Virus record (IMG/VR): IMGVR_UViG_2693429774_000004
Span: 1 to 15,490 of that record
Strand: one strand, 5' to 3'
Length of the DNA: 15,490 bases
Source: a virus
Taxonomy: Duplodnaviria > Heunggongvirae > Uroviricota > Caudoviricetes
The notes beneath the pieces were generated by a model. It was not told the origin of the DNA, did not search any database, and saw only the letters and a program-made list of their open reading frames with translations. Positions within the stretch are counted from its first letter, which is position 1, and each line of letters starts with the position of its first letter. Of the stretch, positions 7,686-14,669 are shown piece by piece. The position numbers and the translations under genes were made by a program.

Positions 7686-8069
7686 ATGCGTGATATTCAG
7701 ATGGTTCTTGAGCGTTGGGGAGCGTGGGCGGCTAATAATCATGAAGATGTGACCTGGTCGTCCATTGCCGCCGGTTTTAAGGGATTAATTCCTTCAAAAG
7801 TAAAATCTCGCCCGCAATGTTGTGACGATGACGCGATGATCATTTGCGGGTGCATGGCCCGTCTGAAAAAGAACAACAGCGATTTGCACGATTTATTAGT
7901 AGATTATTATGTAGTTGGTATGACATTCATGTCACTGGCAGGTAAGCATTGCTGCTCTGATGGTTATATCGGGAAAAGGTTACAGAAGGCTGAGGGCATA
8001 ATTGAAGGGATGTTAATGGCATTAGATATCCGGTTAGAGATGGATATCGTTGTTAATAACTCTAATTAA
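7686..8069 (+). CDS. quuD: Late-gene antiterminator Q
   Basis: 127-aa protein from the ATG at 7686 ([26 protein letters not shown]...). Cys-rich segment [16 protein letters not shown]...KHCCSDGY is consistent with a Q-type zinc-binding antiterminator. Sits at the nin/late boundary. The ORF track begins at an upstream TTG (7671). Confidence 0.85.
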
Positions 8070-8094
8070 TACGCCAATTATTTACTAAAAGTTA

Positions 8095-8262
8095 TTAAAA
8101 ATGGGGCGTTGAAACGCCCCCAAAAATAAAGGGTAATATATAACAGAAGGTTTGTATAGTTAGAAGCAAGGTTGTGCTTCTAAAGGAAGTGGCTTGAGGG
8201 AGCCACTTATATGTTGGGGAGGCAAAGCCTCCCACAACATATCTTTTAGTAATCAAATTAGA
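8095..8262 (-). ncRNA. ipeX: Candidate small RNA from the nmpC 3' region (possibly IpeX-like), ending at a minus-strand intrinsic terminator
   Basis: On the minus strand the 8103-8120 hairpin is followed by ATTTTTAATAAC, a canonical terminator about 140-160 nt past the nmpC stop. I recall an sRNA named IpeX mapping beside nmpC in DLP12, but I cannot confirm its exact coordinates or strand from memory. Confidence 0.3.
8103..8247 (+). promoter_or_regulatory. Cluster of four stem-loops between quuD and nmpC: candidate late-promoter leader/qut region with terminator
   Basis: Stems at 8103-8120 (GGGGCGTT/AACGCCCC), 8162-8181 (AGAAGCA/TGCTTCT), 8187-8208 (AAGTGGCT/AGCCACTT) and 8211-8240 (ATGTTGGGGAGGC/GCCTCCCACAACAT, one bulge). 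The last is followed by ATCTTTTAG on the plus strand. Confidence 0.4.
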
Positions 8263-9340
8263 ACTGGTAAACCATACCTACAGCAACGATATCATCGGTA
8301 GCAACGCCAGATGCTTTCGTGAAATCGCTCTTATCAATCAGGTTGATTTTGTAGTCAACAAAAGTGGACATATTTTTGTTGAAGTAATAGGTTGCACCTA
8401 CATCAACATATTCAACCAGGTCCTGATCACCCCAAACACCCAAGTCTTTTCCTTTAGAATGCAGGTAAGCAACGGATGGACGCAGGCCGAAGTCGAACTG
8501 ATATTGTGCAACAGCTTCGAAGTTTTGTGCTTTGTTGGCAATATGGTTATTACCAAAAACAGTCATGTTCTGGGTTTCAGAATAGGTGGTGGCCAGATAG
8601 ATGTTGTTCGCATCATATTTCAGACCAGCTGCCCATACTTCAGCATTTTGACCAGAAGCATTCAGACCGTTGTTACCGTAGATAACCTGATTATTAGTGC
8701 GATCAGATTTAGCATAGGTTGCACCTACACCGAATCCTTCATACTCATAAGTAGTGGAGAAACCGAAACCATCACCATTAGCTTCAGTTACGTCAGTGCG
8801 GTCATTTTTACCCTGATACTGAGCAGCAAAGTTCAGACCATCAACCAGACCAAAGAAGTCGTTGTTACGATAAGTTGCAACACCAGTGGTGCGACCAGTC
8901 ATGAACACATCTGTTTGAGTCCAAGTGTCACCACCGAATTCTGGCAGGACGTCAGTCCACGCACCGATGTCGTATGCTACACCGTAGTTACGGCCGTAAT
9001 CGATGGAGCCGTAGTCACCGAATTTCAGGCCAGCGAAGGCAAGACGGGTTTTATCTTTGGAGGAACCTTGAGATTCAGCGCGGTTGCCTTTGAATTCATA
9101 TTCCCACTGACCGAAACCAGTCAGTTGATCGTTGATTTGGGTTTCACCTTTGAAGCCAAGACGGGCATAAGTAGTATCACCATCATCTGCATCATTAGAG
9201 GAGAAGTAGTGCTTAGCATTAACTTTCCCGTACAGATCCAGCTTGTTACTGTCTTTATTATAAATTTCAGCTGCCTGAGCAGACATCGCCATCAGTACTG
9301 ATGCAGCTACAGCAGAAATTGCCACTGTTAATTTTTTCAT
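8258..9340 (-). CDS. nmpC: Outer membrane general porin NmpC (OmpD/OmpC family), apparently intact
   Basis: 360-aa ORF with signal peptide [23 protein letters not shown], porin-typical Gly/Tyr/Asp-rich beta-strand composition and the conserved C-terminal motif VGMVYQF. Confidence 0.92.
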
Positions 9341-9928
9341 CGTGAGCCCTTTTTTTTGAACTATTATTAAAAAATGATGTCACTGCGCGATAAATATTCA
9401 TCTAATCAATGTGATTATTTCAAGATGTAAGTTTTAGTTTCTCATTTAATTTGTGAAGTAGATCTCTATTTTTATCTGAACTTTTTCTATCGAAACCTAT
9501 TTATGGCTCTTATTTGAACAAAAATAAACCTATTAGCTAATTTATATTAATGGCTGTTATTTATGGGGGGTCTATAATTCGATGGTTTAATTTAAATTAA
9601 CTAAAAATAACGCCGGAAATTATTTATTGGTTATTTGTTGAGGTTTTCTTATGTATTTGTGGTGGTGTTTTGAACACTCGGTAGCATTCTCATAAATATC
9701 ATTCAGTGGTTTACGTACGTAAAAAATTGGTTATGCTGTTAAGAGTGGTTACTTCGTCACACAGCTTAAACCCGCCGTCGAGCTGGTTTTTCCATTTTTT
9801 GAGTCTCGATATTAGCTGATAACTCAATACCTGAGTTATTCACTGACTCCGAGTCTGTTACGTTTCTGCTTTTTTGCGATACGTTGTATTCCCTCAATTT
9901 ACACCCGCTTTGTCTGCGAGGTGGGGTT

Positions 9929-10144
9929 ATGAAATCCATGGATAAGTTAACAACGGGTGTCGCCTATGGCACCTCAGCAGGTAGTGCCGGTTACTGGTTT
10001 TTACAGCTGCTCGATAAAGTCACGCCCTCACAGTGGGCAGCAATAGGTGTGCTGGGTAGCCTGGTATTTGGCCTGCTGACGTACCTGACAAACCTTTATT
10101 TCAAGATTAAAGAAGATAAGCGCAAGGCTGCGAGAGGTGAATAA
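9929..10144 (+). CDS. essD: Class II holin / pinholin (phage 21 S-like) with dual-start motif
   Basis: 71-aa protein [71 protein letters not shown]. Met1 and Met4 give the classic antiholin/holin dual start; two TMDs. The ORF track starts at an upstream in-frame Met. Stop overlaps the rrrD ATG. Confidence 0.9.
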
Positions 10145-13185: not shown

Positions 13186-14088
13186 GTGTATAACAACGGA
13201 TATCCAACAGCGTATGGAAATATCATTCACCTGAAAGGGATGACAGCCGTTGGCGAAGGTGAGTTACTCATCGGCTGGAGTGGTACAAGCGGTGCTCATG
13301 CTCCGGCATTTATTCGTTCACGACGGGATACGACCGACGCAAACTGGTCGCCGTGGGCGCAGCTTTACACCTCGGCTCATCCTCCTGCAGAGTTTTATCC
13401 AGTCGGTGCACCAATCCCGTGGCCATCAGATACCGTTCCGTCTGGTTATGCCCTGATGCAGGGGCAGACTTTTGACAAATCTGCATACCCGAAACTTGCA
13501 GTTGCTTATCCGTCAGGCGTGATCCCTGATATGCGTGGCTGGACGATTAAGGGCAAGCCCGCCAGTGGTCGGGCCGTATTATCTCAGGAACAGGACGGCA
13601 TTAAATCGCACACCCACAGCGCCAGCGCATCCAGTACGGATTTGGGGACGAAAACCACATCGTCGTTTGATTACGGAACCAAATCCACGAATAACACCGG
13701 GGCGCATACCCATAGTATTAGCGGGACCGCAAATAGTGCCGGCGCGCACCAACACAAGAGTTCCGGTGCATTTGGTGGCACGAACACGAGCATTTTCCCT
13801 AATGGTTATACCGCGATTTCAAATCCAAGCGCGGGGATTATGAGCACAACAAGCGGTAGTGGCCAGACTCGTAATGCAGGGAAGACATCATCAGATGGTG
13901 CTCATACCCACTCGCTGTCCGGCACTGCTGCAATCGCAGGCGCACATGCACATACTGTCGGTATTGGTGCTCATACGCACTCCGTTGCGATTGGCTCACA
14001 TGGACACACCATCACCGTTAACGCTGCGGGTAACGCGGAAAACACCGTCAAAAACATCGCATTTAACTATATTGTGAGGCTTGCATAA
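13186..14088 (+). pseudogene. C-terminal fragment of a side tail fibre gene (lambda Stf / T4 gp37-like distal domain)
   Basis: 300-aa ORF ending ...[14 protein letters not shown] like lambda Stf, with seven His-x-His motifs. No N-terminal tail-attachment region. The frame is open from about 13117; the track start at 13186 is GTG. Confidence 0.85.
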
Positions 14089-14669
14089 TGGCATTCAGAA
14101 TGAGTGAACAAGCACGGACCATAAAAATTTATAATCTGCTGGCCGGAACTAATGAATTTATTGGTGAAGGTGACGCATATATTCCGCCTCATACAGGTCT
14201 GCCAGCAAACAGTACCGATATTGCACCACCAGATATTCCGGCAGGCTTCGTGGCTGTTTTCAACAGTGATGAGGCATCGTGGCATCTCGTTGAAGACCAT
14301 CGGGGTAAAACGGTTTATGACGTGGCTTCCGGCGACGCGTTATTTATTTCTGAACTCGGTCCGTTACCGGAAAATGTTACCTGGTTGTCGCCGGGAGGGG
14401 AATATCAGAAGTGGAACGGCACAGCCTGGGTGAAGGATACGGAAGCAGAAAAACTGTTCCGGATCCGGGAGGCAGAAGAAACAAAAAACAGCCTGATGCA
14501 GGTAGCCAGTGAGCATATTGCGCCACTTCAGGATGCTGTAGATCTGGAAATCGCAACGGAGGAAGAAACCTTGTTGCTGGAAGCCTGGAAAAAGTATCGG
14601 GTGTTGCTGAACCGTGTTGATACATTAACTGCACCGGATATTGAATGGCCAGTAGCACCTATAGGGTAA
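14088..14669 (+). CDS. tfaD: Tail fibre assembly protein Tfa
   Basis: 193-aa [57 protein letters not shown]... near-identical to lambda Tfa from memory. ATG overlaps the stf stop (TAATG). Confidence 0.9.

Follow-up and report, generated by a model that had tools for sequence, protein, structure and literature searches.

The small RNA IpeX was reportedly found by Castillo-Keller, Vuong and Misra in 2006 (J Bacteriol 188:576) to affect OmpC and OmpF, and not OmpA. It is described as a 167-nt RNA of the DLP12 prophage that is made from the phage porin promoter within the porin transcript and subsequently processed (PMC12197685), and repression of both ompC and ompF has been ascribed to it (PMC3333887; PMC7177473; PMC5069750). 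Expression in K-12 is listed for ipeX by RNA-seq studies, and according to reviews it is for K-12 ipeX that a lowering of OmpC in trans by the 166-nt RNA has been reported. Published statements on the role of Hfq disagree, IpeX being termed Hfq-independent in one case (PMC8313858) and dependent on Hfq for at least some targets in another (PMC5069750), and reviews from 2013, 2023 and 2025 state that it has no complementarity to ompC or that it does not base-pair (PMC3617542; PMC10690425; PMC12197685), from which they take its action to be indirect. With the 3′ UTR-derived small RNAs CpxQ, DapZ and MalH, IpeX shares its position at the end of a coding transcript, the use of the parent mRNA terminator and an unpaired seed stretch, and like them it is reported as processed from a longer RNA; unlike them it is carried horizontally on a prophage and has three extra stable hairpins.

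The four-hairpin interval between quuD and nmpC

The window analysed here, the whole 15,490-nt stretch of IMG/VR record IMGVR_UViG_2693429774_000004, comes from a DLP12-like lambdoid prophage of E. coli. Several E. coli chromosomes are 100% identical to it over an 801-base stretch around the four-hairpin interval and carry the annotations ylcG, quuD and 'porin OmpC', and the gene order of K-12 DLP12 is kept (ybcK, ybcL, ybcM, ybcN, ninE, ybcO, rusA, ylcG, quuD, nmpC on the opposite strand, essD, rrrD, rzpD). A sequence-only reading of the window had described four consecutive stem-loops at 8070-8257 between Q and nmpC. The flanking genes are as described, a gene for a Q-family antiterminator ending at 8069 and a complete porin gene on the minus strand, and all four stem-loops, here termed A to D, are present at the coordinates below.

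7686-8069, plus strand: quuD, gene for a Q-type antiterminator (PF06530), convergent with nmpC
8258-9340, minus strand: nmpC/lc-type porin gene (PF00267 full length, 360 aa), whose transcript would carry IpeX
8095-8260, minus strand: assigned to the IpeX RNA (166 nt, against 167 nt in K-12), a porin mRNA 3′ UTR that opens at the first stop-codon base and closes with the U-run of the terminator
8097-8120, minus strand: hairpin A with its U-run (8097-8101), intrinsic terminator of nmpC/IpeX according to the terminator scan
8103-8110/8113-8120, minus strand: hairpin A, 8 bp, GC-rich (-13.9 kcal/mol, z = -3.4)
8122-8159, minus strand: AU-rich unpaired linker CUAUACAAACCUUCUGUUAUAUAUUACCCUUUAUUUUU, the proposed seed (IpeX nt 102-139, 38 nt; unpaired probability ~0.5-0.9)
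8160-8168/8175-8183, minus strand: hairpin B, a perfect 9-bp stem with a 6-nt loop
8187-8194/8201-8208, minus strand: hairpin C, a perfect 8-bp stem with a 6-nt loop
8209-8242, either strand: hairpin D, 15 bp with one bulge (with CTTTT extending to 8247), the 5′-proximal hairpin of IpeX on the minus strand

Supplementary file 1 of PMC8313858 gives K-12 ipeX as positions 574365-574531 of NC_000913.3 on the reverse strand (167 nt). The element is absent from the K-12 RefSeq feature table; the stop codon of K-12 nmpC occupies 574529-574531, so that ipeX begins at the first base of that codon. The gcvB coordinates in the same supplement fit what we take to be the NC_000913.3 numbering. By alignment, K-12 ipeX maps to 8095-8260 of the window on the minus strand with a single 1-nt indel and 95.9% identity. 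The sequence-only reading had named an IpeX RNA beside nmpC, and this comparison with published coordinates shows that ipeX and the interval coincide almost exactly; it had also taken the minus strand of the interval for the nmpC 3′ UTR ending in a strong terminator, in agreement with the scan, which calls hairpin A and the following AUUUUUAAU (AUUUUU on the RNA) an intrinsic terminator. The four-hairpin interval is thus very probably, judged from its sequence, the IpeX sRNA of a DLP12/PA-2-type lambdoid prophage, an element that is itself already known. Its transcript, its processing and its effect on OmpC are taken from the literature on K-12 and PA-2 and would apply to the window copy by virtue of this similarity.

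The IpeX copies of K-12, PA-2 and 434B are mutually identical. The K-12/PA-2 form shares with the window its locus, strand, ends, size and four hairpins at ~96% identity, and seven small sequence differences separate the K-12 and window copies. The 5′ end of the linker has C in the window and U in K-12, and the window linker is the more open of the two. K-12 nmpC is interrupted by IS5 58 nt before its stop codon, whereas the nmpC of the window is intact and has no IS5. At gathering thresholds no family in Rfam 15 matches the interval, and hits at E <= 10 are at chance level only. In the window as a whole the sole Rfam hit at gathering threshold is IS009 (RF02111, 227.9 bits) at 14431-14629 on the plus strand; it lies wholly within a 193-aa ORF (14088-14669), and this match to an 'RNA family' may be coding sequence.

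Folding of each strand, which the sequence-only reading had proposed, gives the 188-nt interval an energy of -67.5 kcal/mol on the minus strand (z = -8.7) and of -71.6 kcal/mol on the plus strand (z = -9.1), with none of 200 dinucleotide shuffles as good in either case. Sequence variation was followed in 28 distinct variants from 180 loci, in which paired cells make up 97.6% and a single pair is changed on both sides; because these variants are 92-100% identical, covariation is nearly uninformative and the helices are not provable by it. Across them the stem of hairpin A is nearly invariant, and in hairpin B six variants have G.U in place of A-U, which preserves pairing on the minus strand alone. 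The apical C-G pair of hairpin D is replaced in E. albertii by U-A, a compensatory change, and a double change in strain SaT040 keeps hairpin D as a one-bulge helix. One-sided changes that keep G.U pairs amount to 13 cells on the minus strand and seven on the plus strand, an asymmetry of G.U versus A.C that leans weakly to the minus strand.

All four hairpins are bracketed by a 10-bp inverted repeat at 8082-8091 and 8243-8252 (TTACTAAAAG / CTTTTAGTAA), which is the closing helix of the minimum-energy fold on both strands. Its left arm (8082-8091) lies beyond the 3′ end of IpeX, so that this pairing is possible only in a plus-strand or read-through RNA.

The late promoter region and the porin cassette

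The late leaders of lambdoid phages (lambda 6S RNA, phage 21, 933W) resemble the interval in lying just after Q and in having a stable plus-strand hairpin followed by a T-run. The sequence-only reading had interpreted the plus strand in these terms, as a Q-dependent late promoter with a leader of ~180 nt containing qut and a terminator tR′ formed by hairpin D and TCTTTT. It is true that pR′ of lambda, 21 and 933W directly follows or overlaps the end of Q, the 933W annotation placing a putative pR′ across the Q stop codon together with a putative qut and a possible terminator, and that hairpin D is stable on the plus strand (-22.7 kcal/mol, z = -5.6) and is followed by a short T-run (CTTTT, 8243-8247). 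The promoter scan, however, found no sigma-70-like promoter in 8070-8257, and the 86-nt pR′/qut/terminator segment of 933W aligns elsewhere, at 9709-9791 between the porin and holin genes (holin gene start at 9929), with a local score of 41 compared with 12.8 +/- 1.2 and a maximum of 18 for shuffled 933W queries. Within 8040-8290 the best score of the same segment is 7-10, which is background. The homologous region contains the following elements.

9709-9791, plus strand: late regulatory region pR′-qut-tR′, by homology to the annotated pR′/qut/terminator of 933W
9710-9715 and 9732-9737, plus strand: putative -35 (TTTACG) and -10 (TATGCT) of pR′
within 9709-9791, plus strand: conserved TAAGAGTGGTTAC block, by homology to 933W
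9769-9791, plus strand: tR′, by homology to 933W

The aligned window sequence reads GTTTACGTACGTAAAAAATTGGTTATGCTGTTAAGAGTGGTTAC...AACCCGCCG...GGTTTTT, and K-12 and the functional phage 4A7 retain this late segment ahead of the holin gene. For pR′/QBE of phage 21 there is no counterpart in the window, the interval included, which is expected because the window Q is only distantly related to Q21 (E = 7.6e-8 for QuuD); to Q of the Stx phage 933W, QuuD is 79% identical over 126 residues, and the two diverge only after the motif RLEMD. Unlike the lambdoid late leaders, the four-hairpin interval thus has neither a promoter nor similarity to 933W or phage 21 nor the TAAGAGTGGTTAC block, whereas promoter, 933W similarity and TAAGAGTGGTTAC are found together at 9709-9791. 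Homology places the true late promoter region of this prophage type there, downstream of the porin cassette, and a late promoter, leader and terminator in the interval itself is a very improbable interpretation.

Hairpin D and its T-run are real, but without a promoter they are not tR′. The plus-strand scan does not call them a terminator, the bulge being the reason, and they are plausibly at most a terminator that would stop transcription leaving Q before its antisense entry into nmpC; such a terminator would plausibly shield nmpC from convergent read-through. Two further combinations were considered as late promoters within the interval and rejected, TTGAAA (8109-8114) with TAATAT (8134-8139) on account of the 19-nt spacer and TATAGT (8155-8160) on account of the missing -35.

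Relative to 933W, the window has a 1.66-kb cassette (8046-9708) between the body of Q and pR′, with its right border at 9708/9709, which supplies Q with a new end of 8 codons and holds IpeX and the porin gene together with its control region. It was either inserted in this lineage or lost from that of 933W. The layout of Q, IpeX, porin on the minus strand and holin is common to K-12 DLP12, PA-2, 434B, phage 4A7 and many genomes.

A number of side observations concern this region. In the stem of tR′ position 9784 is T in the window but G in K-12, phage 4A7 and 933W, and the T variant is present in 28 of 88 loci; the hairpin is lost in the window fold (-8.4 kcal/mol, not better than shuffles), and this T could, if the fold is a guide, raise the basal expression of the lysis genes. 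IS5-family elements recur at the IpeX locus (L002, 4592-5786; L003, 3252-4446; L093, 2494-3668), IS5 lying in codon 346 of nmpC in both K-12 and phage 434B, and in strain JB2 ISKpn26 sits where the porin gene and most of IpeX would be expected, leaving only 42 nt from the IpeX 3′ part. E. coli FDAARGOS_1283 (L091, 2098-4743) has tRNA-Ile and tRNA-Arg genes after Q, IpeX and porin, as in Stx phages, and no holin gene directly next to them, a context from which the porin cassette appears to move between differing late-region backgrounds. In phage 1H12 (L008, 3001-4059) residues 1-120 of Q are 88% identical and the region downstream differs, containing a likely promoter and a terminator and, on the opposite strand, a lipocalin gene (blc); by its position this blc appears to be another moron in the same slot after Q.

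Complementarity of the IpeX linker to the ompC leader

Among the unpaired parts of IpeX the linker is the best conserved, and in RNAduplex it forms two helices with the ompC leader. Linker positions 8138-8152 (IpeX AACCUUCUGUUAUAU) pair with ompC AUAUAACAGAGGGUU at -21..-7, giving 15 bp with one G.U that cover the Shine-Dalgarno sequence, and positions 8124-8132 (IpeX CCUUUAUUU) pair with AAAUAAAGG of the K-12 leader at -31..-23, giving 9 bp. The resulting 9 + 15 bp cover both the Shine-Dalgarno sequence and the site of MicC, with a duplex energy of -26.4 kcal/mol as against -26.5 for MicC(1-30):ompC. This energy is matched by none of 2,000 dinucleotide shuffles of the linker (mean -14.8, sd 2.8), and the 15-bp helix is reached by five of the 2,000; one of 100 mononucleotide shuffles equals the duplex energy, and the pairing is AU-rich. 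A natural background was drawn from 82 enterobacterial loci as 16,268 141-nt windows (mean -11.5, sd 3.2), where apart from the antisense strand of IpeX itself nearly all of the best matches are leaders that share GGCAUAUAACAGAGGGUUA and lie directly upstream of ompC-type porin genes. By these duplex predictions the unpaired linker is complementary to the translation-initiation region of ompC beyond chance. Singletons aside, the IpeX bases that pair do not vary, the one seed change of E. albertii giving a G.U pair, and an ompC leader of at least 99% identity is found in 5368 of the 5426 E. coli genomes.

Cofolding gives a ddG of -24.0 with ompC, -19.8 with ompF and -10.0 with ompA for IpeX of the window, and of -18.4, -14.3 and -10.9 respectively for IpeX of K-12, in which the C-to-U change lets part of the linker self-fold. 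The predicted ranking is therefore ompC over ompF over ompA. The match to ompF itself (10 + 5 + 4 bp over the Shine-Dalgarno sequence and AUG) is no better than that of shuffles (z = -0.3), and the leader of nmpC has no match to the linker.

A close counterpart of this seed is that of MicC (Rfam RF00121), a chromosomally encoded repressor of ompC, which as read from K-12 begins GUUAUAUGCCUUUAUUG. The linker contains GUUAUAU and CCUUUAUU, nucleotides 1-7 and 9-16 of MicC, with AUUAC in place of G8, and its pairing reaches 8 nt further toward the start codon. IpeX and MicC thus share two seed blocks, the same part of the ompC leader and the same predicted duplex energy. They differ in that the IpeX seed is internal and adjoins the terminator whereas that of MicC lies at the 5′ end, and in that IpeX is the 3′ UTR of a prophage mRNA with its blocks split by AUUAC whereas MicC is a free-standing gene. 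The covariance model of MicC finds no match in IpeX, either at the gathering threshold or at E <= 10, and there is no overall homology between the two. Read on the plus strand, 8122-8152 (AAAAATAAAGGGTAATATATAACAGAAGGTT) resembles the ompC leader (AAATAAAGGCATATAACAGAGGGTT), and a porin leader copied in inverted orientation may be the origin of the IpeX seed.

This MicC-like match of IpeX to the ompC ribosome-binding site has apparently been overlooked so far. The supplements of CLASH data do not mention ipeX and ompC is absent from the target lists in the supplements of PMC8313858. The longest uninterrupted Watson-Crick run in the linker:ompC duplex, which has one G.U pair, is 10 bp, and the pairing could have escaped word-based searches because a run of this length is shorter than the usual search words.

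We propose the following model. Porin gene nmpC would be transcribed leftward to end at hairpin A and its U-run, and the last 166 nt (8260 to 8095, minus strand) would consist of an AU-rich 5′ stretch, hairpins D, C and B, the unpaired 38-nt linker and the terminator. Hairpins D, C and B would shield the 5′ end left by processing and hold the linker unpaired, a functional role that for B and C is only proposed. The linker would act as a MicC-like antisense seed on the ompC leader at -31..-7 and occlude the Shine-Dalgarno sequence together with the MicC site, so that initiation of translation is blocked; the lesser match over the Shine-Dalgarno sequence and AUG of ompF would give a weaker effect there. 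A lysogen would thereby swap the porins of its host for that of the phage. That direct pairing of linker and ompC is the mechanism of IpeX we consider somewhat better than an even bet. The reading as a whole, to which we give a probability of about 0.55, is that IpeX is an ordinary antisense RNA with a split MicC seed extended over the ompC Shine-Dalgarno sequence, rather than one acting by the unexplained 'novel mechanism' assigned to it since 2006, and that the prophage silences OmpC, and more weakly OmpF, by direct pairing as the leader of its own porin escapes.

Alternative explanations, distribution and implications

The most serious alternative, although a distinctly less likely one, is that IpeX is real but acts indirectly, through titration of an RNA-binding protein or RNase or through envelope stress, with the complementarity to ompC a relic or a coincidence. 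The denial of base pairing or complementarity in reviews (PMC12197685; PMC3617542; PMC10690425), the description of the RNA as Hfq-independent (PMC8313858), the three stable hairpins, which could act as decoys for a protein, and the lack of significance of the ompF match all speak for it. Independence from Hfq is nevertheless compatible with a long duplex, and coincidence sits uneasily with a match that falls exactly on the Shine-Dalgarno sequence and the validated MicC site, equals MicC in energy, and is better than all 2,000 dinucleotide shuffles and essentially all natural windows except ompC leaders.

Two further possibilities would dispense with a trans-acting RNA altogether. The hairpins might serve solely as convergent terminators or insulators between Q and the porin gene, given that A is a minus-strand terminator, that D is a plausible one on the plus strand, and that palindromic stems fold on both strands. 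A pair of terminators would leave hairpins B and C and the conserved 38-nt linker unexplained, and publications assign a trans effect on OmpC and OmpF to the IpeX sequence (PMC3333887; PMC12197685; PMC7177473; PMC5069750); with the excess of G.U-preserving changes on the minus strand as weak additional evidence, we regard this explanation as improbable. A small protein is harder still to credit. The mechanical ORF listing contains a 53-aa ORF on the minus strand at 8095-8256, and a few records annotate a 'hypothetical protein', but this ORF has a TTG start and crosses four hairpins and a terminator, and natural indels of 1-2 nt break its frame with the hairpins kept. Antisense pairing through the linker remains our preferred reading.

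Of 5426 complete E. coli genomes, 2511 (~46%) carry IpeX, nearly always beside a porin gene, and it also occurs in 36 phage records, among them isolated temperate phages with the order Q, IpeX, porin on the minus strand and holin; PA-2 and a sequenced 434 isolate are among the temperate phages that carry it. A nhmmer search of 80 porin loci, with one genome per species, found no IpeX outside E. coli and E. albertii, and in the same 80 loci none beside the related chromosomal porins of Citrobacter, Salmonella and Enterobacter. In a scan of viral contigs, every porin returned was 99-100% identical to that of the window.

The interval is now placed exactly as IpeX in the window, for an RNA that has no family in Rfam 15, and the late promoter of this prophage type is moved to a position downstream of the porin cassette. 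If the pairing proposed here is true, a split duplex of 24 bp covering the MicC site and the Shine-Dalgarno sequence would make the mechanism of IpeX a conventional one, and the RNA would be a clear case of a phage-borne mimic of a host sRNA seed situated in the 3′ UTR of a lysogenic-conversion gene. Such seed mimicry would then bear on superinfection exclusion and on porin-dependent antibiotic permeability.
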